Shown one piece after another: positions 4,738 to 26,247 of a DNA stretch of 64,000 bases (the first letter of the stretch is position 1; each line of letters starts with the position of its first letter). Origin of the DNA: an uncultured Aliarcobacter sp. (GTDB taxonomy: Bacteria; Campylobacterota; Campylobacteria; Campylobacterales; Arcobacteraceae); the NCBI GenBank assembly GCA_963664305.2, contig CAXXLV010000002.1:1536001-1600000 (forward strand), given 5' to 3'. The notes under the pieces were generated by a model. It was given only the letters and a program-made list of their open reading frames with translations. It was not told the origin of the DNA and made no database searches. The position numbers were made by a program, and so were the translations under genes.

Positions 4738-5112
4738 TTAATTTTTCTCTTCTTCTAAAAGTTGTTTATACTCTTCGTCAGTAAAAATTCTTGATTTTGT
4801 TATAAATTGATAACCTAAATCTATTTCAAGGGAAAATGAGTTTCCAAAGGCAGCTTTTTCTTCTCTTACATCTATTGTTATAAAAGAGTGTTTAAAATAT
4901 TCAAATTGTTGTGGATCAATAAAAAATTCACATCCACAAATTTCTCCCATTTTTACATTACGGCTAGGGACATAAAAATCACCTTTTTCATAACACATAG
5001 GAGCCGTACCATCACAACAACCACCACTTTGATTAAAAACTAATTCACCATGAAGTTCTTTTAGTTTTTCTATCACTTTTGCTGCTGCATCTGTAACATC
5101 TACTCTTTTCAT
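4738..5112 (-). CDS. DUF779 family protein (aldehyde dehydrogenase-associated)
   Basis: QSGGCCDGTAPMC and FSLE motifs; directly downstream of the ALDH. Confidence 0.85.
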   Translation of the reverse strand: MKRVDVTDAAAKVIEKLKELHGELVFNQSGGCCDGTAPMCYEKGDFYVPSRNVKMGEICGCEFFIDPQQFEYFKHSFITIDVREEKAAFGNSFSLEIDLGYQFITKSRIFTDEEYKQLLEEEKN

Positions 5113-5136
5113 TTTTTATCCTTTTGAATAAAAAAA

Positions 5137-5161
5137 CCCATAGAGGAGAACTTCTATGGGT
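5137..5161 (-). terminator. Hairpin/intrinsic terminator after the aldehyde dehydrogenase
   Basis: ACCCATAGAG...CTTCTATGGGT stem; T-run follows on the minus strand. Confidence 0.6.
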
Positions 5162-5189
5162 ATTTATGGATTTATTTTCGCGTTAAATC

Positions 5190-6695
5190 CTAGAAGAAAC
5201 CTAATTTATTTTTATTGTATGAAGTTAAAATATTTTTTGTATGTCTATATGAATTTAACATCATCATATGAGTTTCTCTTCCGATTCCTGATTTTTTATA
5301 TCCTCCGAATGATGCATGAGATGGATACATGTGGTAGCAGTTAACCCATACTCTTCCAGCTTCTATACCTCTACTCATTCTATGTAATTGGTGAGCATCT
5401 CTTGACCATACACCTGAACCTAAACCATAGATTGTATCATTTGCAATTGCTAATGCTTCTGCTTCATCTTTGAAAGTTGTAACAGCAAGAACTGGTCCAA
5501 AAATCTCTTCTTGGAAGATTCTCATTTTGTTGTGACCTTTAAACAGTGTTGGTTGAATATAGAATCCATTTGGATTAGTTTCAGATTCAAATACATCTCC
5601 ACCAATTAACAGTTCAGCACCTTCTTCTTTACCAATATTGATGTATTCCATAATTTTTTCTTTTTGATTTAAAGAACATTGAGCACCCATCATATTTTCT
5701 GTATCTAAAGGATTTCCTAATTTAATTGCTTTAACTCTTTCAAGTACTCTTGCAATAAATGGCTCATAAATTGACTCTTGAATTAATGCTCTTGATGGAC
5801 AAGTACAAACTTCACCAGAGTTAAATGCGAATAATACTAAACCTTCGATTGCTTTATCAAAGAACTCATCATCAGCATCCATAATTGATTCAAAGAATAC
5901 ATTTGGAGATTTTCCACCTAACTCTAAAGTTGAAGGAATAATATTTTCTGTTGCATATTGCATAATTAATTGACCAGTTGTTGTTTCACCAGTAAATCCA
6001 ACTTTTTTAACTAATGGATGAGTAGATAAATATTTACCAATTTTTCCTCCAGCACCATTGATGATATTTACAACACCTTTTGGTAATACATCTTGAACTG
6101 CTTCCATTAATAATAAAATTGACATAGGTGTAGCAGATGCAGGTTTCATAACGATACAATTTCCAGCAGCAATAGCAGGAGCTAATTTCCAAGCAGCCAT
6201 TAATAATGGGAAATTCCAAGGAATAATTTGAGCAACAACACCATATGGCTCATAAATTTCTTGAGAAACTGTGTTTTCATCTAAATCTGAAACTGTTCCA
6301 GACTCAGCTCTAATTACAGATGCAAAATATCTAAAGTGGTCAACAACTAAAGGAACGTCTGCATTTAAAGTTTCTCTAATAGTTTTACCATTATCTAAAG
6401 TTTCAGCAATAGCTAATTTTTCTAAATTTGCTTCAATTGCATCAGCCATTTTATTTAATAAGTTACTTCTTTCAACAATTGATGTATGTTTAAAAGATTT
6501 GAATGCAGTATCAGCTGCAATAATTGCTGCTTCAACATCAGCTTCATTTGATCTTGGAATTCTTGTTAATAATGTTCCATCAACTGGAGAAATATTATCA
6601 AAGTACTCACCACTTTTTGGAGCAACCCATTCTCCACCTATAAAATTCTCATATTGAGCTTTGTATGTTGGTTTTGTATAAATCATTTTTTTCAT
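5190..6695 (-). CDS. NAD-dependent aldehyde dehydrogenase (AldB/ExaC/AcoD type)
   Basis: IIPWNFP, GFTGETTTG, LELGGKSP, GEVCTCPSR (catalytic Cys), EEIFGPV. Confidence 0.93.
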   Translation of the reverse strand: MKKMIYTKPTYKAQYENFIGGEWVAPKSGEYFDNISPVDGTLLTRIPRSNEADVEAAIIAADTAFKSFKHTSIVERSNLLNKMADAIEANLEKLAIAETLDNGKTIRETLNADVPLVVDHFRYFASVIRAESGTVSDLDENTVSQEIYEPYGVVAQIIPWNFPLLMAAWKLAPAIAAGNCIVMKPASATPMSILLLMEAVQDVLPKGVVNIINGAGGKIGKYLSTHPLVKKVGFTGETTTGQLIMQYATENIIPSTLELGGKSPNVFFESIMDADDEFFDKAIEGLVLFAFNSGEVCTCPSRALIQESIYEPFIARVLERVKAIKLGNPLDTENMMGAQCSLNQKEKIMEYINIGKEEGAELLIGGDVFESETNPNGFYIQPTLFKGHNKMRIFQEEIFGPVLAVTTFKDEAEALAIANDTIYGLGSGVWSRDAHQLHRMSRGIEAGRVWVNCYHMYPSHASFGGYKKSGIGRETHMMMLNSYRHTKNILTSYNKNKLGFF

Positions 6696-6816: not shown

Positions 6817-6907
6817 AATGTAGTTTTTTGTTACAAATTACGATAAATTCGGCGTTTTTATCAATTTTTTTTCTTTGAAAATTTCAAAATATGTGTTACA
6901 ATTTTTT

Positions 6908-8815
6908 ATGAAAACTTTTACATATACAATAAATAATAAACCTTTAGAAAAGATAATTGATTTTTCAATGTTTGAAAACGAAAAAAATATTTTAATTCAA
7001 ATTTTTTGTGGTGAAACAAAAGAAAAATTAGAAAACATATTAGATGTTATTACAAAAAGATTAGCTCATGCTGTTTGTATAGGTTCTTCTACAGATGGAG
7101 AAATAAGTAATGATACTATTACAACAAATCAAACTATCATATCTATTTCTACTTTTGAAACAACAACAATTAAATATGCATATGTTGAAGAAGAAGACTC
7201 TTTTTCAAATGGTGTGGAACTTGCTACAAAACTTTGTACAGATACAACAAAAGCTATTATTGCTTTTAGTGATGGAGCTACTACAAATGGAGAAGAATTT
7301 TTAAATGGTATCAATTTTGTAAATAACAAAGTAATTGTAAGTGGTGGTATGGCTGCTGATAATGCAAACTTTACTCAGACATTTATCTCTTGTCAAAATA
7401 AAATATTAACAAAAGGTGCTGTTGGTATTTCTTTAAATTCTGAAGATTTAAAAGTATGTAATGCTTTTAATTTTAATTGGTCTCCAATAGGAATAGAGCA
7501 TGTTATTGAAGAAGTTGTTGGAAATAGAGTTTACAAAATCTCTGGCCTTACACCTTTAGATTTTTATGAAAAATATTTAGGAGAATATGTTGCTCGGTCA
7601 CTTCCAGCAACAGGAATAGAATTTCCTTTAATTGTACAAAAAAATAGAATTCCAATTGCAAGAGCTGTTATAGCAAAACATGAAGATGGAAGTTTGAGTT
7701 TTGCAGGGAATCTTCATAAAGGAGATGTTGTAAGACTTGGTTTTGGAAATGTTGAATTAATTCTAAGTAATCCTCTAAAATCTTTATTAGATAAATGTGC
7801 AATGAATGAAACTCAAAGTATTTTTATCTATACATGTATGGCAAGACGTAGATATATGCCAAGTTTAATTGATATAGAAATAAAACCTTTTTCAAAAATA
7901 GCACCAACTGTTGGTTTTTTTACTTATGGAGAGTTTTTTCATAATAAAGAGAATAATGAACTATTAAATCAAACACTAACGGTATTAGCTTTAACAGAAA
8001 AAACAAATTCAAATTTGGATTTGAAAGTTGAAATAAATAGTAATCAAGACAAACTTAGTGAGCATGCAAGAAGTCTGCAAGCTTTAACAAATCTAATTCA
8101 ACAATCTTCACGTGATTATAATGAACAATCAGAAAAATTAGAAAAAGGAAATAAATATGCACAAAATCTAATAGAATCTCAAAAACAGTTTTTAAAACAC
8201 GCAGTTCATGAAACAAATACTCCCTTATCAGTTATCATGGGAAATATTGAGATGTTTGAAATGGAAAATGGAAAAAACAAATACCTTTCAAATATTGAAG
8301 TTGCAATGAAAAATATCTTTAGTATTTATGATGATTTGAGTTATTTAATCAAAAAAGACCAAGTAAATTCTGCAATTCATAAAATAAATATAGTTGATTT
8401 TGTTAGAAGTAGAATTGATTTTTTTACATCTTCTGCTTTGAAATTTAAATCAAATTTTAAATTTCAATCATTAAAAGATGAAATAATTATGAATTTCAAT
8501 GAAATAAAACTTCAAAGAATAGTTGATAATAATCTTACAAATGCAATTAAATACACTCTTCCAAATGAAACAATATTTGTAAGGCTTTCTGAATTTAACT
8601 CTGAATGTCACTTTACAATTGAGAGTCGTTCAAAACAGATTTTAGACCCACAACAAATTTTTGAAGAATATTATAGAGAAGAGCTTTCAGAAGAAGGTTT
8701 TGGACTTGGACTAAATTTAGTAAAAAGAATTTGCAGTGAAGAAAATGTAGGAATTAGATTAGAATCTGGTGAAAACTTTGCTTCATTTACATATATTTTT
8801 AAAGGAGTACTATGA
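6908..8815 (+). CDS. Cytoplasmic FIST-domain sensor histidine kinase
   Basis: FIST N/C motifs (IGSSTDGEI, GGMAAD, CMARR, GFFTYGEF); H-box HETNTPL; GFGLGL; no TM segment seen; ATG at 6908 preferred over TTG 6875. Confidence 0.85.
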   Translation: MKTFTYTINNKPLEKIIDFSMFENEKNILIQIFCGETKEKLENILDVITKRLAHAVCIGSSTDGEISNDTITTNQTIISISTFETTTIKYAYVEEEDSFSNGVELATKLCTDTTKAIIAFSDGATTNGEEFLNGINFVNNKVIVSGGMAADNANFTQTFISCQNKILTKGAVGISLNSEDLKVCNAFNFNWSPIGIEHVIEEVVGNRVYKISGLTPLDFYEKYLGEYVARSLPATGIEFPLIVQKNRIPIARAVIAKHEDGSLSFAGNLHKGDVVRLGFGNVELILSNPLKSLLDKCAMNETQSIFIYTCMARRRYMPSLIDIEIKPFSKIAPTVGFFTYGEFFHNKENNELLNQTLTVLALTEKTNSNLDLKVEINSNQDKLSEHARSLQALTNLIQQSSRDYNEQSEKLEKGNKYAQNLIESQKQFLKHAVHETNTPLSVIMGNIEMFEMENGKNKYLSNIEVAMKNIFSIYDDLSYLIKKDQVNSAIHKINIVDFVRSRIDFFTSSALKFKSNFKFQSLKDEIIMNFNEIKLQRIVDNNLTNAIKYTLPNETIFVRLSEFNSECHFTIESRSKQILDPQQIFEEYYREELSEEGFGLGLNLVKRICSEENVGIRLESGENFASFTYIFKGVL

Positions 8816-9471
8816 AAATTTTATTAGTAGAAGATGATGAAATGTTAAATGAAATGATTACTGAATATATAAATTCAACTGGTCATGTAATAATAAGTAC
8901 AAAAACAGGTCAAGAATCTTTAGAAATCTTAGACTCCCAAAAATTTGATTTATTGATTTTAGATATTTCACTTCCAGATATAGATGGTTTTACGATTTTA
9001 GAAAAATTGCATGAACAAAAAAGAATGGTTCCAACTATTTATATTTCTGCATTAATTGATATAGAAGATATATCTAGAGCTTTTGATTTAGGTTGTTTTG
9101 ATTATCTAAAAAAACCTTTTCATCTAAAAGAACTGACTCTAAGAATAAATAAAATTCTAAAAACAAGATTGGTTCCTCAAAGACATAAAAGACTTTCAAA
9201 ACATTATAGTTTTGATGCAGAAACTATGACTTTATATTTTAATAATGAACCACATATTCTTCCAAGACGACAACTTCAAATTATTGAACTTTTAGCACAA
9301 AATAGAAGTTTAGTTGTAAACTATGATATGTTTAGAACTTATGTTTGGAATGATGATTATATAGATAATGCAACTATTAGAGCAGAAGTAAATAGAGTAA
9401 AAACTGTATTAAGAGAAGATTTTATTAAAAATATAAGAGGAAGCGGTTATATGGTTGAAAGACCTGATTAA
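8812..9471 (+). CDS. OmpR/PhoB-family response regulator
   Basis: Receiver (VEDD, LDISLP, KPF) plus winged helix ending IRGSGY; ATGA overlap with the kinase. Confidence 0.9.
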   Translation: MKILLVEDDEMLNEMITEYINSTGHVIISTKTGQESLEILDSQKFDLLILDISLPDIDGFTILEKLHEQKRMVPTIYISALIDIEDISRAFDLGCFDYLKKPFHLKELTLRINKILKTRLVPQRHKRLSKHYSFDAETMTLYFNNEPHILPRRQLQIIELLAQNRSLVVNYDMFRTYVWNDDYIDNATIRAEVNRVKTVLREDFIKNIRGSGYMVERPD

Positions 9472-9487: not shown

Positions 9488-10588
9488 TTAAATAAAAGTC
9501 AAAGAATTTAATCTATTTCTATATATGATTTTATCATCTGCATAAATCATACTATCTTCAATTTTTTTATTTATTATTCCATGGTCTGGTGATTTTATAC
9601 AAACAGGGTCAGTTGCATTCATATCTTTTGTTAATGCAAATGCTTGACATCTGCATCCTCCAAAATCTTTCTCTTTTTCATCACAAGTACGACATGGTTC
9701 TTTCATCCATTTATCACCTCTAAAATAGTTAAAGGCTTCAGATTCATACCAAATATGTTCTACTGAACTCTCTTTTACATTTGGAAAAGTTAAAGGTAAA
9801 GTATTTGCTGTATTACAAGGAAGTGCTAAACCATCTGGATTAATAGTTAAAAATGTTGTTCCCCATCCATTCATACAAGCTTTTGGTCTTGTTGCAAAAT
9901 AATCAGGAACAACAAAAAATACTTTCATATCTGTTCTTTGTGTTCTATAATAATTTGTAACTTTTCTTGCTTCACTAATTTGTTCTTGAGATGGTAAAAG
10001 TGCATTTATATTTTTTAAAGCCCACCCATAATATTGGATATTTGCGATTTCTAAATAATTTGCACCTAATTTTTCAGCAAACTCTATGATATCTCCAACT
10101 TGATGAATATTTTGTCGAGTAATACAAGTATTAATAATAAGTTGAAGACCTGCATCTTTTACCTCTTTTGCAAATGCAATTTTTTCATCATAAGAGTTTT
10201 TATTGTTTGTTATTAAAGTCATAGTATTTTTATCATGTGATTGAATACCAAGTTGAACTGTTTTAAGTCCTGCTTCTTTTAATTTTGGAACAATTCCTTT
10301 TGGAGCACCAACTCCTGAAGTTATAAGATTTGTATAAAATTTTAAATCATTTGCTTTTTTTACAATCTCTAAAACATCTTTATTTAATAAAGGCTCTCCT
10401 CCACTAATTCCAAGTTGAACAGCACCTAATTCTCTTGCTTGTTCCATCACTCTAAACCAATCTTCTTTGCTCATAGCGTCTTTTGTTTTTGCAAAATCAA
10501 GTTGGTTATAACAATATGCACACTCTAAAGGACATTTATGAGTTAATTCTAAAAGAATCCATAATGGTGGTTTTATTTCATTGTTCAT
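9488..10588 (-). CDS. pqqE: PQQ biosynthesis radical SAM enzyme
   Basis: ELTHKCPLECAYCYN; SPASM motifs KACMNGWG and CRTC...GGCRCQA. Confidence 0.95.
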   Translation of the reverse strand: MNNEIKPPLWILLELTHKCPLECAYCYNQLDFAKTKDAMSKEDWFRVMEQARELGAVQLGISGGEPLLNKDVLEIVKKANDLKFYTNLITSGVGAPKGIVPKLKEAGLKTVQLGIQSHDKNTMTLITNNKNSYDEKIAFAKEVKDAGLQLIINTCITRQNIHQVGDIIEFAEKLGANYLEIANIQYYGWALKNINALLPSQEQISEARKVTNYYRTQRTDMKVFFVVPDYFATRPKACMNGWGTTFLTINPDGLALPCNTANTLPLTFPNVKESSVEHIWYESEAFNYFRGDKWMKEPCRTCDEKEKDFGGCRCQAFALTKDMNATDPVCIKSPDHGIINKKIEDSMIYADDKIIYRNRLNSLTFI

Positions 10589-10838
10589 ATTTAATCCAGT
10601 TTCTATTTTTTGCTTCTGCTAAAAAAGCATTTATATCTTGTGTTAAATCTTCCATTTCAAATTTTTCACATAAAATTTTATTTATATCTTTTACGCTGTT
10701 TTTTCCGTCACAAAGATTTAGAATTTCTCCTGCACTTTGATTTAATTGAACCATACCTTCTGGGTATAAAAGTACATAACAGTTTTGTTTTTCTTCCCAT
10801 TGAAATTGAAAATTCGGATTTACACTTATATTTTTCAT
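10578..10838 (-). CDS. pqqD: PQQ precursor peptide chaperone
   Basis: VLLYPEGMVQLNQSAGEIL..CDG motif; operon position. Confidence 0.93.
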   Translation of the reverse strand: MKNISVNPNFQFQWEEKQNCYVLLYPEGMVQLNQSAGEILNLCDGKNSVKDINKILCEKFEMEDLTQDINAFLAEAKNRNWIKYEQ

Positions 10839-10839
10839 T

Positions 10840-11550
10840 TTATCTTTCCACGTTAAAGTAAGGAGGTCTTTTTAATTCATAAGCTAAATATAAAGCATCA
10901 CAAATTGTCCATAAAATATCTAGTTTAAATTGTAAAATTGTAAAAGCTTTTTCTTGTAATTCTCTTGTATTAAACTCTTCAAGAGTAATTGCAAGTCCAT
11001 GTTGAACATCTCGTCTAGCTTCACTTAATCTTTTTTGGAAATATCTTAAACCCTTTTGTTCAATCCAAGGATAATTATCTGGCCAAGTATTTAATCTTTG
11101 TTGATGAATTTGTGGAGCAAACATCTCAGTTAAAGATGACATTGCAGCCTCTTTCCAAGGTCTTTGACGTGCAAAATTAACATAAGCATCAACTGCAAAT
11201 TTAACGCTAGGTAATAAAAATTTATGATTTATTAAATCCTCTTTTTTAAGTCCAACTGCTTCACCTAGTTCCAACCAAGCCTCTATTCCACCACCAACAC
11301 TATCATGGTCATTAATTCTATCTATCCATTTTCTTCTATCAACTAAACTATCACAGTTTGACATAATTGCAGCATCTTTAATAGGAATCATACATTGATA
11401 ATAAAATCTATTTGCAACCCAACCTTGAATCTCCTCTTTTGTACACTTACCTTCATACATTCTTATATGAAAAGGATGATGAATATGGTACATTTTTCCC
11501 ATATCTCTTAGTTTTGTTTCAAATTCTTCTTTACTAAAAACTTCTTGCAT
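10840..11550 (-). CDS. pqqC: Pyrroloquinoline-quinone synthase
   Basis: [26 protein letters not shown]. Confidence 0.95.
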
Positions 11551-11560
11551 TTTCTCTCCT

Positions 11561-12475
11561 TTAAATTTCTATACTCATACCATCATAAGATACTTCAATA
11601 CCATGGGATATAAGTTCTTTATACTCAGGGCTCTCTTCATCTAAGATAGGATTTGTATTATTTATATGAATTAATATCTTTCTTGGTTTTGTTAAGGTAT
11701 CTAATAAATCAATCAATCCACCCTTATCTCTTAGGGGTAAATGTCCCATATCAGTTCCAAGTTTTGAAGAAAATCCATTTTTTATCATCTCATCATTTGT
11801 CCAAACTGTTCCATCTACAAGTAAAATATCAGCTTGACTCATCTCTTCAATTATATGTTTTTCTAAAACACCAAGTCCTGGAAGATAAAACAATCTTTTC
11901 CCTGTTTTTTTATTTAAAACAACAACTCCAATATTATCACCAACTCTTGGTCTATCTCTATATTTTGAATATGGAGGTGCATTTGAAATTAGTGGAACGG
12001 CATAAAACTCACAATTTGGCATAACTGGTATAAAAAATGGTTGTTTATTAAAAGCTATTTCATTATAAACAACTCCTCCACCATCCCAGTGTTGAAGCAT
12101 TTTAAATAAAGGAAAAGAAGTATTTAACTCTTCATGAACTTCTTTTGTACAATAAACTTGATGAGGGCATCCTTCCCTTAACATCAAAAGTCCAGTTGTA
12201 TGGTCGATTTGAGCATCAATAAAAATAATAGCTTTTATTTTTGTTTCACGTCTTTGTTGTGGATGTAAAAATGGTGAATTATGAATTTGTTCTAAAATAT
12301 CAGGACTTGTATTAAATAAAACCCAATTCTCACCGTCTTCACTAATTGTAATAGAACTTTGTGTTCTTCTTTTTATAGATTTTTTTCCTTCTCTATAACC
12401 TTTACAATTATCGCAATTACAATTAAATTGAGGAAGTCCACCACCAGCAGATGAACCTAAAACTTCTATTCTCAT
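11561..12475 (-). CDS. pqqB: PQQ biosynthesis protein (MBL fold)
   Basis: [36 protein letters not shown]. Confidence 0.95.
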
Positions 12476-12603: not shown

Positions 12604-12678
12604 TTATTCATGACAAATATACATTGTCACTTCAAAACCAAATCTATTGTCAACAAACATAGGTTTTTCCCATTTCAT
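12604..12678 (-). CDS. pqqA: PQQ precursor peptide, 24 aa (MKWEKPMFVDNRFGFEVTMYICHE); not in ORF track
   Basis: Translated by hand; RFGFEVTMY with E-x3-Y core; SD GGAGG upstream; lies just before pqqB. Confidence 0.95.
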   Translation of the reverse strand: MKWEKPMFVDNRFGFEVTMYICHE

Positions 12679-12704
12679 TTTTATTCCCTCCTTTATAAGA
12701 TTTT

Positions 12705-14495
12705 TTATTTGTGTAATTTAAACACGTGAACAGAGCCACCTTGGTTGATGTTTTTAACTGCTTTTGCAACTTCACCACCCCATAAAGGAACAGCTCCACC
12801 CCAACCAGAAACAACAGCTACATATTGCTCACCATTTTGTTCCCAAGTAATTGGAGAACCAACGATTCCTGAACCTACGTTAAATGAGTATAAAACTTTT
12901 CCATTTTGGTCATCTAAAGCTAATAATTTACCTTCAGGAGTTCCAGTAAATACTAAACCACCAGCTGTACTTAACACTCCTCCCCATAATGGAGCTTTAT
13001 TTTTGTAAACCCATTTAATTTGTCCAGTTACAGGATCAACCGCTTTTAAAGCACCAATGTGGTCTTCAAAAATTGGTTTAATTGTAAACCCTGCTCCTAA
13101 ATATGCTGCACCTTTTTTGTACGATACTGGTTGATTCCAAATATCCATTCCCCACTCATTTGTTGGAACATAGAATAATCCAGTGTTTTGAGAATATGAA
13201 ATTGGCATCCAGTTTTTAGCACCTAAGAATGAAGGAACTGTAAATACTGATGTTCCTTTTCCACCATCAACTGCTGCACCTGGTCTATTATCTTCATTTA
13301 CAATTGGTCTTCCATTTTCATCAATTCCTTTTGCCCAAGTAATATTCTCAGCAAAAGCAACTGATCTAATATATTTACCAGTTGTTCTATCTAAAACGTA
13401 GAAGAATCCATTTTTGTCAGCTGTTGCTCCAGCTTGAACTTTTTTACCATCTTTATCTTTGTAATCAAATGGAATAAACTCTGACATACCATCAAAATCC
13501 CATCCATCATGTGGAGTTGTTTGGAAATGCCATACAATTTTTCCAGTATCTGGATTAACTGCAACTCTTGAAGCAGAATATAAGTTATCCCCTTTTCTTA
13601 AGTGTGAATTCCATGGTGCTGGATTTCCAGTTGGAACGAAAATTAAATCTGTATCAGGGTCATATGTAACACCATTCCAAGGAGCAGCTCCACCTGATTG
13701 CCACATGTCACCTTCCCAAGTAGCGTTTAATGTACCACTAATTCCATTTTCTTTACCATTTAAGTATCCCATATGACCTTCAACCATTGGTCTCATCCAT
13801 ATAAGTTCACCAGTTTTTGGATCTCTAGCTTCTACTTTACCAACAACACCAAACTCACCACCTGAAATACCTGTGATAACTTTGTCTTTTACAATTAGTG
13901 GAGCAGCAGTTATAGAATAACCATCTTTATATTCAGAAACTTTTTTCTTCCAAACAACTTTTCCAGTTTTTCTGTCAAGTGCAACTAATTTTGCATCTAA
14001 AGTTCCAAAAATAATTAGATTATCATAAATAGCAGCACCTCTATTTATAACGTCACAACATGGTAAAATTGCATCTGGTAAGTTTGCATCATATTGCCAA
14101 ATTTCTTCACCCGTTGCTATATCAATAGCAAAAACTCTTGAATAAGAAGCTGTAACATACATTACACCATCTTTAACGATTGGTTGAGATTCTTGACCTC
14201 TTTGTTTTTCACCACCAAAACTAAAGTTCCAAACAGGAACTAAATCTTTAACACTATCTTTATTAATTTGTGTTAAAGATGAAAATCTTTGTCCTTGTTG
14301 TCCTAACCCATAAGTTAAAACATCATTTGTTGTTTTTGCATCATTTGCAATTTCTTTGTAAGTAACTGCATTATATGATGGTTCTGTAACATTAGTTGTG
14401 CTATTATTAGTAGCGTTGTTTGAAGCAACACAACCACTAATTAGTGCAGATAGTGTAACGGCAACTGCACTAGTTAGCAATTTATTTTTAATCAT
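12705..14495 (-). CDS. pedH: PQQ-dependent alcohol dehydrogenase, PedH/ExaF-like (lanthanide-type), predicted lipoprotein
   Basis: Vicinal CC (LPCCDV), [31 protein letters not shown]; lipobox LISG-C22. Confidence 0.85.
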
Positions 14496-14544
14496 ATTCT
14501 CTCCTTATATAATTTTAATAACAGACCAAATTTGTCTTATTGAA

Positions 14545-14576
14545 AGTATACATAACAAATATAGCCTAAGTTTAGC
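14545..14576 (-). promoter_or_regulatory. ADH-pqq operon promoter: two GCTA repeats plus -10 TATACT
   Basis: TAGC at 14562 and 14573; AGTATA at 14545-14550. Confidence 0.75.
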
Positions 14577-15354
14577 TATGGTTTATTTTTTTAGATTTAA
14601 ATCCAACAAACGCCATAAATAGGCTAATTACCAATGAAATTAGTAAGATAAAAAACACCTCAAAATCATATTTTCCATAAAGTGAAAAACGAATAGCCTC
14701 TACTATATAAGTAAAAGGATTAGATGATGAGATATTAAACAATAAAATAGACGAATCTTTTATCTTCCAAAGAGGATATAAAGCACTACTTAAAAAGAAC
14801 ATTGGGAAAATTACAAAGTTCATAACTGTTGCAAAATTCTCTAACTGTTTTATTACAGAAGAGATAAATAAAGCAAAAGCATTTAAGATTATTGATGAAA
14901 TTATGATTATTGGAACTGTTAGAAAAATATCTAAAACCGATAGTTCAACCCCATACCATTTAGCAATAAATAAAAAAGTTAAAGCTTGAAGAGTTGATAC
15001 GATTGCAGTTGCAAACATCTTACAAAAAAGTAGATAATTTCTATTTATATATGATGTTAAAAGTATTTTCATACTTCCCATCTCTCTATCAAAAATCATA
15101 GTTAAACTACTTTGCATTCCATTAAAAAGTAAAACCATTCCAACAAGCCCTGGAACTATATATGTTTCATAAGTAATATATGTTTCATAAGGTGGAATAA
15201 TTGCCAATCCAAGTGCTGTTTTAAATCCAACTGAAAAAATAAATAACCATAAAAGTGGTCTAACAAGTGCAGAAAAAAATCTACTTTTTTGTTTTAAAAA
15301 TCGTATTAACTCTTTATATACAATTCCATTCATGCAATAGATATATTTTTTCAT
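14572..15354 (-). CDS. ABC-2 permease of PQQ-ADH systems (PedC-like)
   Basis: LVRPLLWL, PPYETYITYETYIVPGL, DREMGSM, FFLSSALYPLWK. Confidence 0.85.
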   Translation of the reverse strand: MKKYIYCMNGIVYKELIRFLKQKSRFFSALVRPLLWLFIFSVGFKTALGLAIIPPYETYITYETYIVPGLVGMVLLFNGMQSSLTMIFDREMGSMKILLTSYINRNYLLFCKMFATAIVSTLQALTFLFIAKWYGVELSVLDIFLTVPIIIISSIILNAFALFISSVIKQLENFATVMNFVIFPMFFLSSALYPLWKIKDSSILLFNISSSNPFTYIVEAIRFSLYGKYDFEVFFILLISLVISLFMAFVGFKSKKINHS

Positions 15355-15358
15355 TTTT

Positions 15359-16078
15359 TCATCCTACAATTTGCTTGAATGTATCAACCAAATTCTCTTT
15401 TTCATATTTTTTAACAATATTTTTTACAATTCCAGTTTCTATTATTTCACCATTTTTTATTATTGAAATATTGTCATTTTCTTTTACCTCATCAAAAAGA
15501 TGTGTAATCCATAAAACAGAAATTTGTTTCTCTTCTACTAATTTTCTTACATAATCCAAAATATCAAATCTACTTTTTAAATCCAAACCAACAGTTGCTT
15601 CATCTAATAATAAAAGTTTTGGTTTATTTATCAATGCTCTTAAAATCTCTACTCGTCTTCTGTGTCCACCATTTAGTTTTCGCACTTGTGTATCCATAAC
15701 ATCTAAAAGTTCAAGTTTTTCTATTTCATCTTTTATTGAAAGAAGTGTCTCTTTAAAATTTAAACCTTTTAAAGAGCCATAGTAATAAAGATTTTGTTTT
15801 ACAGTTAAATCTAAATCCAAAGTTGGTTCTTGAAAAACAATCCCAATATCTTTTAAAGCATTTGAATAATCTTTTATTGAGTAGTTATTTATGAAGATTT
15901 CTCCAATTTGAAGAGATTGAAGTCTTGTAATCAAAGAAAAAATTGTAGATTTTCCTGCACCATTAAGTCCTAATAAAACAGAAAAAGCTCCCTCTTTTAT
16001 GGAAAAAGAGACATTATTTAATACTCTCTTTTTTCCATAATAAAAATCTATATCATTTAGTTCTAAAATATTTTTCAT
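15359..16078 (-). CDS. ABC transporter ATP-binding protein (PedB-like)
   Basis: GLNGAGKST, LNGGHRRRVE, LLLDEAT. Confidence 0.9.
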   Translation of the reverse strand: MKNILELNDIDFYYGKKRVLNNVSFSIKEGAFSVLLGLNGAGKSTIFSLITRLQSLQIGEIFINNYSIKDYSNALKDIGIVFQEPTLDLDLTVKQNLYYYGSLKGLNFKETLLSIKDEIEKLELLDVMDTQVRKLNGGHRRRVEILRALINKPKLLLLDEATVGLDLKSRFDILDYVRKLVEEKQISVLWITHLFDEVKENDNISIIKNGEIIETGIVKNIVKKYEKENLVDTFKQIVG

Positions 16079-16079: not shown

Positions 16080-17039
16080 TTATTTATTTGGAATAACAGC
16101 TAATCCCCAAGGATATCTTCCTACAGGAATTGTTTTTTCAACTTTTAATGACTCAACATCAATTATTGAAACATCACCACTTACACCATTTGTTGTATAA
16201 AGTTTTTTCTCTCCATCTACAAAATGTAACTGCCAAACTCTTTTTCCTACAAGTAAATATTTAATTACTTTATATGTTTTTGCATCAATTACAGCAACAT
16301 GATTTGCAGGTCCTAAAGCAACAAAAGCATATTTTCCATCACTTGTAAGTTTAATTCCAACTGGTTGAATTAAATCTTTAAAAATTCCAGGAATTTTAAA
16401 TCCAATTTTTGCAACAGATGTTTTAGTTTTTGCATCAACTACCATAACTGTTCCACCAATTTCACTTGAAGCCCAAACCATACTTCCATCATGTGAAAAC
16501 TCAATATGTCTTGGTCTTTGATCAACCAATGTGTTATGAATAATCTTTTTTGTTTTTGTATCAATCCAGTGTAAAAAATTTGAAGTTTCTGTTGTATTAA
16601 TAGCAACACTTCCATCAGGACTTACAGCCATACCTTCTGGTTCAACACCTACATCGATTTGAGCTAATACAGATTTGTTTTGTGTATCAACAACAGTTAC
16701 AATTGCATCATCTTCATTTGAAATATATAACTCTTTTCCATCAGGAGTTAAAGCAAATTGTTCAGGGTCTTCACCTGAAGGTAAATCATATAAAATCTCA
16801 TTTGTTTTTGTATCCATTACTTGAACTGTATCATCATCACTTGCACAAATATAAAGTTTGCTATAGTCATTACTTAATAAAATTCCTCTTGGTCTTTGAC
16901 CTACTTTTACAGTTTTTACAACTTTATTTGTATCTGAATCTATTATGCTTAAAGTATTATCTTTTTCATTTGAAACATAAACTGTATCAGCCATAAGCAT
17001 ACTTGTTAAAATTGATATTGATAAAAAAGTCTTTTTCAT
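16080..17039 (-). CDS. YVTN beta-propeller protein of PQQ catabolism clusters (PedA2-like)
   Basis: Signal peptide; repeated YVSNE/VGxxP blades; SD GGAG before ATG 17039. Confidence 0.85.
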   Translation of the reverse strand: MKKTFLSISILTSMLMADTVYVSNEKDNTLSIIDSDTNKVVKTVKVGQRPRGILLSNDYSKLYICASDDDTVQVMDTKTNEILYDLPSGEDPEQFALTPDGKELYISNEDDAIVTVVDTQNKSVLAQIDVGVEPEGMAVSPDGSVAINTTETSNFLHWIDTKTKKIIHNTLVDQRPRHIEFSHDGSMVWASSEIGGTVMVVDAKTKTSVAKIGFKIPGIFKDLIQPVGIKLTSDGKYAFVALGPANHVAVIDAKTYKVIKYLLVGKRVWQLHFVDGEKKLYTTNGVSGDVSIIDVESLKVEKTIPVGRYPWGLAVIPNK

Positions 17040-17068
17040 ATTTTTATTCTCCATTTATTTTATGATGA

Positions 17069-17167: not shown

Positions 17168-18319
17168 ATGAAAATAATTTTATTTTTACTACTGCTATTA
17201 AATTTTATTTATGCAGATATCTTAAATACAAAAATTTTATATTTAGAACAAAAAATTGAAAAACCACCTGTTTTATCAAATATCATAGAAGAACCTGATG
17301 ATTTAGGTTTAAAAGGTGCCCAAATTGCTGTAATTGATAGTAATAAAAGTGCTAAATTTTTAAATCAAAACTTTGAACTTGAAACAAAAATATCTTATGA
17401 TGAAAATGAGTTAATAACTGCTTTTGAAGATTTTATAAAAGCAAATAACAGTTATGTGATTTTAAATGTTGAAACAACTCTTTTTGAAAAAATCGTTAAA
17501 AATCCACTTTCAAAAAATGCTTTATTAATAAACGCAAGCAATGAAAGCACACAAATTAGAAAAAATTATTGTGTTAAAAATCTAATCCACACAAGTGCAA
17601 GTAACGCAATGCTTTATGATGGATTAGTTCAATTTTTAGTAAAAAGAAATTTTAAAAATATTCTTTTAATAAGTGGAAAAAATCCAAAAGATATAGAAAT
17701 AGCAGATGATATAAAAAGAGCTGTTAAAAAATTTGGAGCAAAAATCGTTGCTGAAAAAACTTGGGAGAACAATAGTGATATCAGAAGAAAAGCTTCTGAT
17801 GAAATTCCTGTATTTACACAAGCAAAAGATTATGATGTAGTTTTAGTAGCAGATTATTATGGAGATTTTGGAGAGTTAATCTATTTTAACTCTTGGCTTC
17901 CAAGACCAGTTGCAGGAACTCAAGGATTAACTCCTGTTTTATGGCATAAAGTTATCGAAGCTTGGGGAGCTGCTCAAATGCAAAGTAGATTTGAAAAGTT
18001 CTCTTCAAGATGGATGCAATCGCGTGATTATTCAAATTGGCTTGCAGTTAGAACAATCATCACATCTATAGCAAAAACAAATACAAATGATTTAAAAACC
18101 AATCTTGATTTTATTTACTCTGATGAGTTTGATGTTGGTGCATATATGGGAAGAAAACTCTCTTTTAGAGATTATAATGGACAAGTTAGAATTCCTATTT
18201 CACTTGTTCAACCAAGAGCTTTGATTTCAACTTCACCACAAGTTGGTTTCTTACATCCAACAACAGATTTAGATACACTTGGAATTGCACCTTTTGAAAT
18301 GGAATGTAAAAATGAATAA
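17168..18319 (+). CDS. Substrate-binding protein of PQQ-ADH-associated ABC system (PedA1-like)
   Basis: Signal peptide; PRPVAGTQGL, EAWGAAQMQSRF, SFRDYNGQVRIP, LDTLG motifs. Confidence 0.8.
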   Translation: MKIILFLLLLLNFIYADILNTKILYLEQKIEKPPVLSNIIEEPDDLGLKGAQIAVIDSNKSAKFLNQNFELETKISYDENELITAFEDFIKANNSYVILNVETTLFEKIVKNPLSKNALLINASNESTQIRKNYCVKNLIHTSASNAMLYDGLVQFLVKRNFKNILLISGKNPKDIEIADDIKRAVKKFGAKIVAEKTWENNSDIRRKASDEIPVFTQAKDYDVVLVADYYGDFGELIYFNSWLPRPVAGTQGLTPVLWHKVIEAWGAAQMQSRFEKFSSRWMQSRDYSNWLAVRTIITSIAKTNTNDLKTNLDFIYSDEFDVGAYMGRKLSFRDYNGQVRIPISLVQPRALISTSPQVGFLHPTTDLDTLGIAPFEMECKNE

Positions 18320-18773
18320 AATCTTTTTATTCATTTTTCTTTTCTCTTCTTTTTTACACGCAAATTATGAAATCATAGAAAATGAAAACTTTTTTGTTGT
18401 AAAAACAGCAAACACAAATTTTCAAGAAAATCTTTTAAAACTAAAAGATGAGATAAACTTTCAAGGTTTTGTGATAGTTTATGAATTAAATCTAGCAAAA
18501 TCAACAAATGAAGTAGCAACTTTACTTGAAAAAAAATCTTATCTAAAAAATGGTACAAATCTAGGAATTTGTAAAGCAAGTTTTACGTATGAAATGGTAG
18601 AAGAAAATTTTAATAATATAAATTATTGCCCTCTTGGATTATCAATATATGAAGATTTTGATGGTTCTTTTTATATTTCATTTAAAAAATATAAACCCTT
18701 TAAAAATGAAGAAAAAATAGCAAATAAGATAAATGAAAAACTGAAAGATTTGATTTTTAAAAGTTTAGAGTAA
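18312..18773 (+). CDS. DUF302-like exported protein
   Basis: Signal peptide; IC...YCPLGLSIYE pattern; start overlaps upstream stop. Confidence 0.6.
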   Translation: MNKIFLFIFLFSSFLHANYEIIENENFFVVKTANTNFQENLLKLKDEINFQGFVIVYELNLAKSTNEVATLLEKKSYLKNGTNLGICKASFTYEMVEENFNNINYCPLGLSIYEDFDGSFYISFKKYKPFKNEEKIANKINEKLKDLIFKSLE

Positions 18774-19899: not shown

Positions 19900-21099
19900 T
19901 TAAAATTCGATATTAACTGCACCAACAACAGTATGCATATCTTCTAAACTGTTTTTATCAAAATCACCAAATGCATATCTTAAACCAAGAGTTGCACTTT
20001 TATTTAAAGCATAAGATAAACCTAAATCATATTCGTTGATTTTTAAATCTTCATTTAAACTTGAAAAAGTTGTATCTTTGATTTTATGTTGAGCTATATT
20101 TGACTCTAATGTTAAAGCTTGTGTTAAATCATATTCAAAATTTAAAGCAAAGATAGTTGTATCACCATATTTTCCAACTCTATTAAATGAATCCGTCCCT
20201 AAATCAGCATTTGTAAAATATGTTACAGGTAGATTTTCCCCTGATACATAACCATCTTTTGTATGAACTGCTGCTGCACCAATTTTAAAATCATTGATTT
20301 GTTTAGCAACTTTTAAATATGCTCCAAACATTTTTTCATCAACTTGTCCTGCTGTCGAATTACTTCTATCACCAGTTCTTTTTTCAACTTGTGTTTGTAA
20401 TTCTAATCCAGCAACTTCACCCATTGCAAAGGCATTGAACATATGACTTGTTGCATCATTATAAATTGCAGAATTTGTAGCTGTTTCAGTATTGTTTTGT
20501 AAGTAAACATATCTTCCACCAACAAGTAATTTATCAAGAATAACTTGTCCACCTAAACCATATGCATCAAAATCTCCAGTTCCAGTTCCTGATGAATTAG
20601 CACCTAAGAATGTATTTTGGTCATTATTTTTACCTTCAACTGCTTTAAAATCAAATGCATATAATAAAGTATTTTCAACTGGTGTATAACCTAAAAGAGC
20701 TAAATCAATTTTATCTCCATTAGAACCATAAAAAGGTGTTCCATATGTATCATTTATTCTTCCAGCAATTAGTAATTTATCTTGATTAAATGGAACTGTT
20801 ACATAAGCTTCTTCCCACTCAAAAGTATCGTTTGAGTTATCACCCCAAGCATCATTTTGTAATTTTATAGCTGTGTGAACTTTTATACCTTCAAGTGTAG
20901 TAAAGTCTAAATTTAGATTAACTTCTGAATCAATAATTTGTTTATCTTTTTTAACTGTTGCTGTATCACCTTTTACAGAAATTCCCCTAACTTCTGCATC
21001 ACCAGAGATTTTTAAATCTGATGCTATTTCTATAGTACCTGCCATTAATGAACTTACTACAACTGATGTTGCAAAACTGATTAATCCTAACTTTTTCAA
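19900..21099 (-). CDS. Outer membrane porin (Campylobacterota MOMP-like beta-barrel)
   Basis: Signal peptide, alternating beta-strand pattern, terminal Phe (VNIEF); TTG start with AGGA SD. Confidence 0.75.
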   Translation of the reverse strand: MKKLGLISFATSVVVSSLMAGTIEIASDLKISGDAEVRGISVKGDTATVKKDKQIIDSEVNLNLDFTTLEGIKVHTAIKLQNDAWGDNSNDTFEWEEAYVTVPFNQDKLLIAGRINDTYGTPFYGSNGDKIDLALLGYTPVENTLLYAFDFKAVEGKNNDQNTFLGANSSGTGTGDFDAYGLGGQVILDKLLVGGRYVYLQNNTETATNSAIYNDATSHMFNAFAMGEVAGLELQTQVEKRTGDRSNSTAGQVDEKMFGAYLKVAKQINDFKIGAAAVHTKDGYVSGENLPVTYFTNADLGTDSFNRVGKYGDTTIFALNFEYDLTQALTLESNIAQHKIKDTTFSSLNEDLKINEYDLGLSYALNKSATLGLRYAFGDFDKNSLEDMHTVVGAVNIEF

Positions 21100-21278: not shown

Positions 21279-21683
21279 TTATTTGTATTTACCGTATTCC
21301 TTAAAAGTTTTATCTTCAAAAATAACAAAAACTGTTTTAGTTTCTTTATCATTTTCATAAGCTGGAAGAGATAATCCTATAGAATTTTTTACAGGATTTT
21401 TTAAAAAATCATTTATTGCTAGACTTGGAACATTTCCTTCAAATACAAAATCTTTATATATTGAAGTATTACAAGATTGTATCTCTTTTGGTATTCCAAC
21501 ATTTCTTTTTAATGCTTTCATATCAATCATTGATACAACATCCACACTTTCATTTACATCACTCTTGATTTTGTCTAACCAATCTTGGGGACAAGTGCTA
21601 CTAACTGGCTTAAATATTTGAATCTTTTCATCAAATGCAAATAGACTCAAAGCCAAAAACAAAATAAATACTAACTTTTTCAT
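21279..21683 (-). CDS. Exported DUF411-like protein with degenerate metal motifs
   Basis: GIPKEIQSCNT...FEGNVP...GLSLP resembles DUF411 SCHT...EGHVP...GLAVP. Confidence 0.55.
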   Translation of the reverse strand: MKKLVFILFLALSLFAFDEKIQIFKPVSSTCPQDWLDKIKSDVNESVDVVSMIDMKALKRNVGIPKEIQSCNTSIYKDFVFEGNVPSLAINDFLKNPVKNSIGLSLPAYENDKETKTVFVIFEDKTFKEYGKYK

Positions 21684-22381
21684 ATTTCTCCTTCTAATAT
21701 TTTGGGATAAGTTTTAAATAATCTATTTTTTATTTCATCAATTTTTTCCATATCAAACTCTTGATTATTTTCATTTTTATATTCATAGATTATTTTGGCT
21801 GGATTTTTACCAAAAAACAAAATCCTATTTGAAAGATATATCGCTTCACTTAAATCATGAGTAACTAAAATCACACTACTTTTAAACTCTTTGCAAAGAT
21901 TTAAAAAAAATCTTTTTAGATTTAGTGCAGTTGGAAAATCCAAAGATAAAAATGGTTCATCAAGAAGTACGATTTTTGGTTCATTGATAAAAGTTCTAAT
22001 CAAAGCAATTCGTCTTGCCATTCCACCAGAGATTTCATTTGGGTATTTTTCTAAAATATCTTTTTTTAATTCAACAAAAGATAAAAACTTTTCAATCTTT
22101 TTTATATCTTTATTTTTAGAAAATAAAAGCAAATTCTCTTTTATTGTAAGCCAAGGTAATAATAGATTTTCTTGAAACATATATCCGATATTTGAAGATT
22201 TTAAGTTTACATTTCCTATAAACTCTTTATCCAAAGAAGCAACTATTTTTAATAAAGTTGTTTTACCACAACCAGATGGTCCAATAATTGATAAAAATTC
22301 TGAATCTTTTATATTGATTTTTATATCTTCTAAAATTTTGTTTTTTTCATAATATTTTGTTTTGATTTCTATATTTATCAT
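21680..22381 (-). CDS. NitT/TauT-type ABC ATP-binding protein
   Basis: GPSGCGKTT, LLPWLT, ISGGMARR, LLDEPF. Confidence 0.88.
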   Translation of the reverse strand: MINIEIKTKYYEKNKILEDIKINIKDSEFLSIIGPSGCGKTTLLKIVASLDKEFIGNVNLKSSNIGYMFQENLLLPWLTIKENLLLFSKNKDIKKIEKFLSFVELKKDILEKYPNEISGGMARRIALIRTFINEPKIVLLDEPFLSLDFPTALNLKRFFLNLCKEFKSSVILVTHDLSEAIYLSNRILFFGKNPAKIIYEYKNENNQEFDMEKIDEIKNRLFKTYPKILEGEI

Positions 22382-22382
22382 T

Positions 22383-23117
22383 TTAAATCCATCTTCTATA
22401 TTTTTTTTCCATAGGAGTTAAAAACAATCTTTCAAACAAAAATATAATAAAAATAAAACAAAAAGTATAAGCAAATATTGATGTTATATCAAAGTATTGG
22501 AAAAACATAGAGATTTGAAAACCAACTCCATCACTTCTTCCTAAAAGTTCAACAACCAAAACCAATTTCCAAATCAAAGATATAGCAATTCTACTACTTG
22601 AAATCAAAGATGGATACAAATAAGGAATATAGATTTTAAATAGCGTCTCTTTAAAATTTAGGTTATATACTTTTACTAATTGTAAATATTTTTTATCCAA
22701 AGAACTAACTGCCTCTTTTATATTTACAATGATAATTGGAACTTTGTTTATAACAACAGCTAAAATCAAAGAAAAATCAGTTAATCCAAACCAAATATAA
22801 CAAATAACTATTGTTACAAGAGCTGGAATATTTAAAGCAATTAACAAAAAGATAGAAAAAAAGTTTTCAATTTTTGTTGAAATTCCCATCAAAAATCCCA
22901 AAAATATTCCAATAATCATAGTAATAACAAAAGCTAAAACAACTCGATATAAAGTAATACTAATATTTTCAATCAAATCTTTGTTTTTAAAATGTTCAAC
23001 AATAGAATAAAAAATATCAATCAAAGATGGAAAAAGTTCTGAATTTACTAAAAGTGAAATTGCTTGCCAAACAATACAAAAAAGAATTATTGAAAATATT
23101 TTTGTTTCATTAAACAT
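22383..23117 (-). CDS. NitT/TauT-type ABC permease
   Basis: Multiple TM segments; WKLVLVVELLG..DGVG motif. Confidence 0.85.
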   Translation of the reverse strand: MFNETKIFSIILFCIVWQAISLLVNSELFPSLIDIFYSIVEHFKNKDLIENISITLYRVVLAFVITMIIGIFLGFLMGISTKIENFFSIFLLIALNIPALVTIVICYIWFGLTDFSLILAVVINKVPIIIVNIKEAVSSLDKKYLQLVKVYNLNFKETLFKIYIPYLYPSLISSSRIAISLIWKLVLVVELLGRSDGVGFQISMFFQYFDITSIFAYTFCFIFIIFLFERLFLTPMEKKYRRWI

Positions 23118-24074
23118 TTATTGAACCTTATAAAAAATATCTTTTTCTAAAACTCTGCTCTCTTGTGATAAATCATCTTTTCCTTCATTTAATAAAAGTG
23201 AAAATATTTTTTCTATGTCTTTAATATTTTCATTTGTAAAATCTTTTATAATTGATTTTTTATATCCCTCTTTTAATGCTTCAAAATCATTTTCATTATC
23301 AACTTTCATTATATCTTTTAATCTATCCCACTCTTTTTCGCTACTATTTAAAATATCTTTTGCTTCAAAACTAGCCTTTAAAAAAGAGTTTATTAAATCA
23401 TGATTTTCAATTGAAAAATCTTTATAAAATGTCCAACCAACAAAAGGAATATCACTATTTACTCCAAATTCACTAAAAACATTTTCCATTAGAACTAAAG
23501 GTTTCATACCAAATTTTTCTAATTTTGCATTAAAATGCCAATAATTTATACTTGCATTCAAAGACTCATCTTCCATTTTTTTATATAAAATTGGTGCTGT
23601 TGCAAAAACTGGTTTTACTATATTTTTTAAATCTAAATTATATTTTTTCTTTGCATAAGCTCTTAAAATAATCCAAGTTTTATCATCAACTCCACCTGCA
23701 ATTCCCAATTCTTTATCTTTTAAATTTTCAAAAGTTTTTATTTCACTTTTAGGATTTATATAAAGAGTTCCTGTAGCTTTTGAATAAGGATAAAAAACAA
23801 ATTGTTTATTTTTATCTCTTTGTGTATTTACCCAAATCCAATCATTTACAATCATATCTACACTTTTTGATTGAAGTGCGATTAATTGGGCATTTTTTGA
23901 AGCTAATTGAGTAAGTTGTAAGTCAAATCCATACTTTTTATCAAGTTCATAATGTTTAATTACATCTAATTCCCAGTTTACTGTTCCATAATTTAAAACA
24001 CCTATTTTCAAAACATTTTGTGCATACAAATTTGATATTATTAAAGCTACTATAAATAGGACTTTTTTACTCAT
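23118..24074 (-). CDS. NitT/TauT-type ABC substrate-binding protein
   Basis: Signal peptide; GTVNWEL, DWIWV, GIAGGVDDKTW; SD GGGAG before ATG 24074. Confidence 0.8.
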   Translation of the reverse strand: MSKKVLFIVALIISNLYAQNVLKIGVLNYGTVNWELDVIKHYELDKKYGFDLQLTQLASKNAQLIALQSKSVDMIVNDWIWVNTQRDKNKQFVFYPYSKATGTLYINPKSEIKTFENLKDKELGIAGGVDDKTWIILRAYAKKKYNLDLKNIVKPVFATAPILYKKMEDESLNASINYWHFNAKLEKFGMKPLVLMENVFSEFGVNSDIPFVGWTFYKDFSIENHDLINSFLKASFEAKDILNSSEKEWDRLKDIMKVDNENDFEALKEGYKKSIIKDFTNENIKDIEKIFSLLLNEGKDDLSQESRVLEKDIFYKVQ

Positions 24075-24103
24075 AATTACTCCCAATTTTTATTAATTTT
24101 GCA

Positions 24104-24188: not shown

Positions 24189-24221
24189 TCCACTAATCAA
24201 AAAAAATTGAAAAGGAAAATT

Positions 24222-26245: not shown

Positions 26246-26247
26246 AA

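Follow-up and report, generated by a model that had tools for sequence, protein, structure and literature searches.

A PedH-type alcohol dehydrogenase, predicted to be lanthanide-dependent, in a ped-like gene cluster of an uncultured Aliarcobacter, and its distribution in the Arcobacteraceae

We analysed a stretch of 64,000 nucleotides (the window) from an uncultured Aliarcobacter sp. (assembly GCA_963664305.2, contig CAXXLV010000002.1, positions 1,536,001 to 1,600,000), in which a gene for a pyrroloquinoline quinone (PQQ) alcohol dehydrogenase lies at 12705..14495 within a ped-like cluster of about 23 kb, extending from 4738 to 28603. A preliminary description, made from the sequence alone, had pointed to the active-site segment PHDGWDFDG and to a vicinal cysteine pair; both are present, and they are encoded on the minus strand, which that description left unstated. 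The minus-strand open reading frame (ORF) is intact, with no internal stop over 596 residues, and a reading of 12705-14495 on the plus strand is rejected because stops occur throughout. The triplet D333-F334-D335 occupies 13491..13499 (minus strand), D333 being the catalytic Asp (codon 13497-13499) and D335 the Asp diagnostic of lanthanide enzymes (codon 13491-13493), and C146 and C147 are encoded at 14055-14060. This triplet aligns with D-F-D of PedH (6ZCW) and with D-F-S of ExaA (1FLG), and E214, N291, D333 and D335 all align with the equivalent residues of PedH, of which we take the Glu and Asn to be metal ligands. The protein scores 782.6 bits against TIGR03075, the type I PQQ alcohol dehydrogenase (methanol/ethanol) family, which has a curated cut-off of 480.

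The best solved structures for the dehydrogenase are 6ZCW (865 bits) and 6ZCV (860 bits), followed by ExaA 1FLG (680 bits); XoxF and MxaF structures reach at most 363 bits, and at most 373 bits when type II enzymes are included. An AlphaFold model built from a 47-row alignment (mean predicted local distance difference test score, pLDDT, 81.8; predicted template modelling score 0.87) has the PQQ beta-propeller fold, with template modelling (TM) scores of 0.88-0.89 to 6ZCV, 6ZCW and 1FLG. Its best matches are entries titled 'lanthanide-dependent alcohol dehydrogenase PedH' (TM 0.89/0.94, 65-66% identity), so that the close likeness to Pseudomonas putida PedH named in the preliminary description holds; identity is 54% to ExaA and 31-38% to XoxF and MxaF. 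Three other identities were considered and rejected. An XoxF or MxaF is rejected on this low identity and on a position outside their clade. A type II quinohaemoprotein is rejected on the low structure-match scores and on the missing haem c motif, there being no CxxCH because the protein has only three cysteines (22, 146 and 147). A calcium enzyme of the PedE/ExaA type would have Ser two residues after the catalytic Asp, where Asp335 stands here.

The value of this position as a marker, asserted in the preliminary description, is borne out by the sequences that we compared, as the residue is Ser in 1FLG (D-F-S) and Ala in a Paracoccus gene adjoining moxJ (D-Y-A). The same Ser/Asp contrast between PedE and PedH is stated in PMC5487730 (in part; papers so marked are cited for the portion of their text available to us), and PedH is active with La, Ce, Pr, Nd or Sm and not with Ca (PMC5487730, in part). 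The extra Asp is essential in XoxF1 and ExaF (bioRxiv 2020.02.25.964783, in part). Motif, sequence, fold, tree and gene neighbourhood support assignment of the dehydrogenase to the PedH type, and by analogy with these enzymes we consider it very probable that it depends on lanthanides.

Two further features bear on where the enzyme may act and on what. Residues F423 and W572 correspond to Phe and Trp in 6ZCW, both of which are changed in 6ZCV, presumably a PedH variant engineered at these positions; a PedH-like substrate range is therefore likely. At the N-terminus a lipobox (ISGC22) precedes an Asn/Thr-rich linker, and a lipobox is seen in 28 of 50 distinct Campylobacterota D-x-D N-termini compared with 3 of 69 other D-x-D proteins, as counted with a simple pattern after rows lacking a readable start were dropped and with one start visibly mis-picked. 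Judging from this sequence, the dehydrogenase is probably exported and lipid-anchored in the periplasm. A promoter scan of 12400-14700 was uninformative (9 sites against 10.2 expected). Contigs from four RNA-library runs in three studies, found with 11500-17100 as query, cover parts of the dehydrogenase, the pqq genes and pedF, one piece of 599 bases at 13409-14007 having 8 differences from the dehydrogenase gene; these contigs come mostly from relatives, cannot show transcription or its level, and are not counted as evidence.

The genes around the dehydrogenase were called with Pfam and NCBIfam profiles. In order of coordinate, pqqE, D, C and B (9488..12475, minus strand; TIGR02109, TIGR03859/NF002535, TIGR02111 and TIGR02108, all over cut-off) are followed by pqqA (12607..12681, minus strand), a 24-residue precursor peptide over cut-off for PF08042 and TIGR02107, then by the dehydrogenase, pedC, pedB, pedA2 and pedA1. 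The pedC-type ATP-binding cassette (ABC) permease (14572..15354, minus strand) scores 338.8 with TIGR03861 (cut-off 241) and the pedA2-type YVTN beta-propeller (16080..17054, minus strand) 502.6 with TIGR03866 (cut-off 287). For four genes the best match falls slightly below cut-off, namely the pedB-type ABC ATPase (15359..16078, minus strand; TIGR03864, 285.8 bits, cut-off 302), the pedA1-type periplasmic binding protein (17168..18319, plus strand; TIGR03863, 412.9 bits, cut-off 413.6), a quinoprotein-associated SoxYZ-like carrier (TIGR04557, 138 against 140) and an ExaC/AldB-like aldehyde dehydrogenase (NF050026, 834 bits, cut-off 900). The last is encoded with a DUF779 protein (PF05610) at 4738..6695 on the minus strand; the SoxYZ-like carrier is paired with a SoxH-like metallohydrolase (TIGR04558, 370.6 against 300) at 25496..27150 on the plus strand, both of the PP_2677/PP_2678 type. 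Between the aldehyde dehydrogenase and the pqq genes lie a histidine kinase with FIST, FIST_C, HisKA and HATPase domains and a response regulator (6875..9471, plus strand), which stand beside the cluster in most related loci and are likely to be its local regulator.

Beyond pedA1 are a small conserved protein, weakly DUF302-like (18279..18773, plus strand; PF03625, E 0.017) and present in most related clusters, and a RhuM-family gene inserted at 18778-19653, which is also found at that place in one relative (L121) and has a partial second copy elsewhere in the genome. A probable outer-membrane porin (19900..21099, minus strand) has no Pfam or NCBIfam match, and its first ESM Atlas match is labelled 'porin' (score 0.99). 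A weakly DUF411-like gene and a second ABC system follow (21279..24086, minus strand), the binding protein of which, at 23118-24086, matches 9B1U at E 6e-44; 9B1U is PqqT, a periplasmic PQQ-binding protein (PMC11331073, in part). On the plus strand, the cytochrome c550 gene pedF (24207..24626; TIGR04494, 192.8, cut-off 122) is followed by a family-3 binding protein (24626..25486; PF00497), which also comes after pedF in related loci and takes the name PedG/XoxJ from its position, and the cluster closes with a second M17 leucyl aminopeptidase (27158..28603, minus strand). P. putida counterparts of the cluster genes are described in PMC12997753 (in part). An exbB-exbD pair adjoins the cluster at 2933-3822, as it does in several relatives, and no TonB-dependent receptor is close by. 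Elsewhere in the window, as read from translations, we see at about 31000-40000 what resembles an integrated filamentous prophage, with small ORFs and genes for a Zot-like ATPase, a Gly/Ser/Thr-rich protein, secretin-like and replication-initiator-like proteins and an integrase, and, at 50900-60938, a nap-type periplasmic nitrate reductase cluster with nrfH/nrfA-like genes.

The preliminary description had found no calcium-type paralogue in the window, and this absence extends to the genome, which is 99.96% complete: paralogue searches covering all but 8000 bases, with tblastn, TIGR03075 and a PedE-type query, gave no second PQQ alcohol dehydrogenase. Pentapeptide PedD was not found in the genome, and neither PqqF nor an AcsA-type acetate-CoA ligase scored over cut-off there; ccoN (cbb3 oxidase) and three ackA genes are present.

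Genes, residues, fold match, clade, co-occurrence and paralogue absence were computed here, and the metal, substrates, electron path and transporter roles are carried over from the biochemistry of PedH, ExaF and XoxF. On this analogy a light lanthanide would be bound by PQQ, E214, N291, D333 and the extra ligand D335, and ethanol and other alcohols would be oxidised in the periplasm at the PQQ-lanthanide site. Electrons would pass by way of the C146-C147 disulfide to PedF and on to a terminal oxidase such as cbb3, and the aldehyde product would be oxidised by the neighbouring ExaC-like aldehyde dehydrogenase. PedF reoxidises PQQ in the system described in PMC12997753 (in part). PQQ would be made by the products of pqqA-E, PedA1A2BC would handle the metal and the PqqT-like protein PQQ; in P. 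putida, PedA1A2BC is required for growth at nanomolar lanthanide (PMC6839425, in part). As the dehydrogenase is the sole PQQ alcohol dehydrogenase in the genome, the periplasmic route should need lanthanides, and we predict that the organism oxidises alcohols using rare-earth elements (REEs).

To place the gene among its relatives, we searched 184 Arcobacteraceae genomes and found dehydrogenase matches in 58 of them, in 10 of 22 genera; 49 have the PedH type only, five the PedE type only, and four both. PedH-type copies (53 of 184 genomes) are 68-88% identical to the window protein, the genome's own copy being 100%, and the D-x-D motif could be read directly in 51 of the 53, the other two being cut by contig ends before it. 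The nearest named relatives belong to Aliarcobacter, Arcobacter, Poseidonibacter and Malaciobacter. D-F-S copies, at about 50% identity, occur in nine genomes, four times beside a D-x-D copy and five times alone; each adjoins a pentapeptide gene, and one that we checked against the PDB is closest to ExaA 1FLG (1024 vs 678 bits). In the four genomes with both (G168, G170, G155, G156), the two enzymes are encoded within about 15 kb (loci L113, L114, L118, L119). In one locus (L120, genome G167) frameshifts interrupt the genes for the dehydrogenase, the aldehyde dehydrogenase, the kinase and the regulator alike, and assembly errors or cluster decay would account for this. Outside the family, none of 377 genomes in a phylum sample of 401 matches the dehydrogenase; the gene does occur, together with this cluster and at the higher GC of the hosts, in named records of Sulfurimonadaceae and Sulfuricurvum, so that it is rare rather than absent there.

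Accessory genes follow the dehydrogenase closely. Of the 58 dehydrogenase genomes 57 have a pqqC match, and the 126 others have none. A second pqqC-like match occurs in three genomes (G004, G019, G025), and at L031:7549-16451 a block between dehydrogenase and pqqB holds a second, divergent pqqC-like gene, U32-peptidase-like genes and a second radical SAM gene. Among the 53 PedH-type genomes, 49 have PedA1 and 51 have PedA2; those without are 61-78% complete or are split into 290 contigs. Neither protein occurs in the five PedE-only genomes (95-100% complete) or in the 126 lacking a dehydrogenase. Fisher tests on co-occurrence give p near 1e-5, with kin that are not independent. As PedA1 and PedA2 are kept with the PedH type and are found in none of the PedE-only genomes, lanthanide use is supported independently of the motif. 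PqqT was not found in the five PedE-only genomes and PedG-like sequence gave one weak match of 58 residues, one of the searches of these genomes having no positive control. Three PedE-only clusters (L112, L116, L117, of genomes G017, G090, G107) keep pedC and pedB and lack pedA1 and pedA2, hinting that PedBC does something unconnected with lanthanides, perhaps export. A secreted protein of about 139 residues, encoded at L130:5954-6382 and at 37 other loci but absent from this genome, stands between pedA2 and pedA1 in many Arcobacteraceae clusters and near PedH genes in marine Alphaproteobacteria. It has no Pfam or NCBIfam match, and its ESM Atlas neighbours are labelled copper-binding or cupredoxin, from which a metal chaperone is possible.

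The M17 aminopeptidase of the cluster is a candidate for trimming PqqA. A housekeeping pepA elsewhere in the genome is 48% identical to it, and at least two pepA matches, which can be fragments, are found in 53 of 58 dehydrogenase genomes compared with 11 of 126 others. The cluster copies form a separate clade with catalytic motifs intact, and in both Sulfurimonadaceae loci pepA comes immediately after pqqE, in the same orientation. In Methylorubrum extorquens a leucyl aminopeptidase mutant, found in a screen on XoxF1, has a methanol growth defect for which PQQ processing was suggested (PMC7391723, in part); the PQQ peptidases listed in PMC10531626 do not include M17. Against a maturation role, all five extra pepA copies tested from genomes that lack pqqC group with the cluster copies as well, and the linkage may therefore be one of position. 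We put forward a part for this aminopeptidase in PqqA trimming and PQQ maturation tentatively, as a possibility with slightly less than even prospects.

Three trees were built, with FastTree (135 distinct rows of 151 aligned over at least 480 residues), with IQ-TREE under LG+G4 (57 chosen rows) and under the C20 mixture model (37 rows), using plasmid-borne distant homologues and XoxF/MxaF-like enzymes as outgroups. In all three the dehydrogenase lies in a single, host-adapted Campylobacterota D-x-D clade (support 99, 99 and 100/100), inside which the Sulfurimonadaceae copies are nested. The sister of this clade is a group of Gammaproteobacteria (Pseudomonas, Stutzerimonas, Amphritea, Alteromonas, Zhongshania; 99, 97 and 84/92), the D-F-S proteins form a separate clade, and monophyly of all D-x-D rows has support of 87-91 in two trees and is unresolved in the third. 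A single origin of the Campylobacterota D-x-D and D-F-S enzymes is rejected (approximately unbiased test, p 6e-97). The placement with PedH and ExaF that the preliminary description looked for is upheld in that the dehydrogenase groups with Pseudomonas and Stutzerimonas D-x-D proteins, apart from D-F-S; the trees left out KT2440 PedH and ExaF themselves. Since they are absent and Proteobacteria are represented by rows from only 80 of 582 confirmed loci, the donor is suggested and not fixed.

The dehydrogenase gene has a GC content of 35% against 27% for the genome, and none of the 377 phylum-sample genomes outside the family has a match, as might be expected were the cluster newly inserted from elsewhere, part of a contaminating contig or an unexpressed remnant. 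GC at third codon positions, however, is host-like (0.144 vs 0.114 +/- 0.023, standard deviation, over 1130 long ORFs), which argues that the acquisition is old, and recent transfer is rejected on this and on the spread across genera. The ORF is intact, 10 of 22 genera have orthologues at 68-88% identity in a conserved gene order, and the cluster is embedded in a 1.78-Mb contig where its neighbours, nap genes for example, are of Campylobacterota type, so that an insert, contaminant or relic is scarcely credible. A single, ancient acquisition from Gammaproteobacteria is the probable source of the cluster, which has probably since been lost in some lineages or swapped for a PedE module. Gene order suggests such later loss and swapping: in one genome (G042) a pedE-pedD pair stands in place of the pedH-pedCBA2A1 of relatives, adjoining a short remnant of the permease of the second ABC system, and in another (G097), which lacks dehydrogenase and pqqC, about 3 kb separates the FIST-kinase and regulator from the cluster-type pepA.

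Several points weigh against lanthanide dependence or against the evidence for it. D-x-D is a marker of lanthanide use and not a proof of it: XoxF1 of M. oxyfera has been reported with Ca only despite its D-x-D (PMC6028718, in part), and proteins predicted to use Ca and others predicted to use Ln are both reported within types 2b and 6a (bioRxiv 2026.07.10.737718, in part). The metal-free model has lower pLDDT at the active-site loops, below 50 at 214-216. The five PedE-only genomes, which belong to three genera, are not independent of one another, and three of them keep pedC; the Pseudomonas/Alteromonas group has support of 97-99 as sister in two trees, but the mixture model gives this relation only 84/92. 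No TonB-dependent receptor was found in the cluster, by the window ORF list and Pfam/NCBIfam scans. The genome also encodes one Fe-ADH-family and three ADH_N-domain proteins, and therefore alcohol use overall need not be strictly lanthanide-dependent.

The XoxF1 report and the lack of a dedicated outer-membrane receptor would suit a metal-promiscuous enzyme that prefers lanthanides and works adequately with Ca2+ in vivo, sparing most members of the family a PedE, as would the 49 of 58 dehydrogenase genomes that have no calcium-type partner. We think this improbable, as PedH, 65-66% identical, is inactive with Ca (PMC5487730, in part), PedA1 and PedA2 are retained with D-x-D and missing where D-F-S stands alone, and the presence of both types side by side in four genomes is sensible if their metals differ. 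A second alternative accepts lanthanide dependence and gives the enzyme another job, detoxifying aldehydes or alcohols or acting on some other substrate, with enzymes linked to nicotinamide adenine dinucleotide (NAD) doing the bulk of catabolism. The Fe-ADH-family and ADH_N proteins could serve in this way, no acetate-CoA ligase of the AcsA type scores over cut-off, and PedH is broad in substrate and takes aldehydes too (PMC5487730, in part). On the other side, the Phe and Trp of 6ZCW are retained (F423, W572), the ExaC-like aldehyde dehydrogenase and DUF779 are conserved beside the cluster, and the three ackA genes offer a route from acetate; we regard such a detoxifying or other role as unlikely, and favour periplasmic alcohol oxidation by a lanthanide-dependent PedH.

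The preliminary description had supposed a lanthanide alcohol dehydrogenase to be uncharacterised in Arcobacteraceae, and we too found nothing on a lanthanide or PQQ alcohol dehydrogenase from Arcobacteraceae or other Campylobacterota in the open literature searched, subscription papers and some supplements being out of reach. Word searches in PMC11996626 (text and six supplementary text files), PMC6028718, PMC11845868 and bioRxiv 2026.07.10.737718 gave no Arcobacteraceae report, although survey tables may still list such sequences. In PMC7284936, PQQ dehydrogenase transcripts were assigned to Colwellia and aldB partly to Arcobacter. What we describe is known enzyme chemistry, that of an ordinary PedH, in a phylum where it is seemingly undescribed and is widespread.

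If the prediction is correct, lanthanide biochemistry extends to Campylobacterota and is common there (53 of 184 Arcobacteraceae genomes, 49 without calcium backup), and tests of alcohol use in lanthanide-free media would give false negatives. A bolder proposal, which we consider doubtful, is that a large share of the Arcobacteraceae (53 of 184) and a few Sulfurimonadaceae run a lanthanide-only periplasmic alcohol respiration rebuilt from native parts, with a lipid-anchored PedH, a FIST-kinase for PedS2-PedR2 and an M17 paralogue trimming PqqA without PqqF; were it true, a phylum that has so far had no connection with lanthanides would have them as a growth factor, and the M17 peptidases would join the classes of enzyme that mature PQQ. 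With its Ln-only, Ca-only and dual clusters, the family lends itself to a natural comparison. It bears on which accessories are lanthanide-specific (PedA1, PedA2, PqqT and PedG go with PedH, and PedBC often stay with PedE), on the rare-earth switch outside Pseudomonas and methylotrophs, and on M17 PQQ maturation.

Among known systems, XoxF and MxaF (6DAM, 6OC5, 4MAE; 1H4I) share the eight-bladed PQQ propeller, and XoxF also the extra Asp, but they match at 31-38% identity and about 310-360 bits and the cluster has no mxa or xox operon; methylotrophy is not indicated. ExaA of Pseudomonas aeruginosa (1FLG) and PedE, of the calcium type I, share the fold (54% identity), the vicinal cysteines and the catalytic Asp, but have Ser, not Asp, at +2 and form a separate clade, represented in nine genomes of the family and not in this one. 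ExaF of M. extorquens AM1 is a lanthanide ethanol dehydrogenase with the essential Asp (bioRxiv 2020.02.25.964783, in part), and the lut cluster of that organism has an ABC transporter homologous to PedA1A2BC (PMC6839425, in part); a PqqT homologue is common to both, whereas a LutH-like receptor is not in the cluster here. The pairing of Ca and Ln enzymes seen in the Pseudomonas REE-switch (pedE/pedH) is missing here, this genome having no PedE; four relatives have such a pairing.

Compared with P. putida, the host belongs to Campylobacterota and the genome has no PedE or pentapeptide PedD, pqqA-E lie directly downstream of the dehydrogenase with no pqqF over cut-off, a PqqT-like ABC system is inside the cluster, and the dehydrogenase has a lipobox instead of an ordinary signal peptide. 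The sole two-component pair in the cluster is the fused FIST-kinase and regulator, the genome not having been searched for PedS2-PedR2. In the P. putida cluster a FIST-type NosP homologue stands beside PedS1 (PMC12997753, in part). With PedH itself (PP_2679 of P. putida KT2440, 6ZCW/6ZCV; PQQ alcohol dehydrogenase type 2b), the dehydrogenase shares the fold, the vicinal cysteines and D-F-D at 65-66% identity, and the likeness extends to the locus, where PedA1A2BC, PedF, a PedG-like protein, the PP_2677/PP_2678 types, an aldehyde dehydrogenase and a porin are neighbours.

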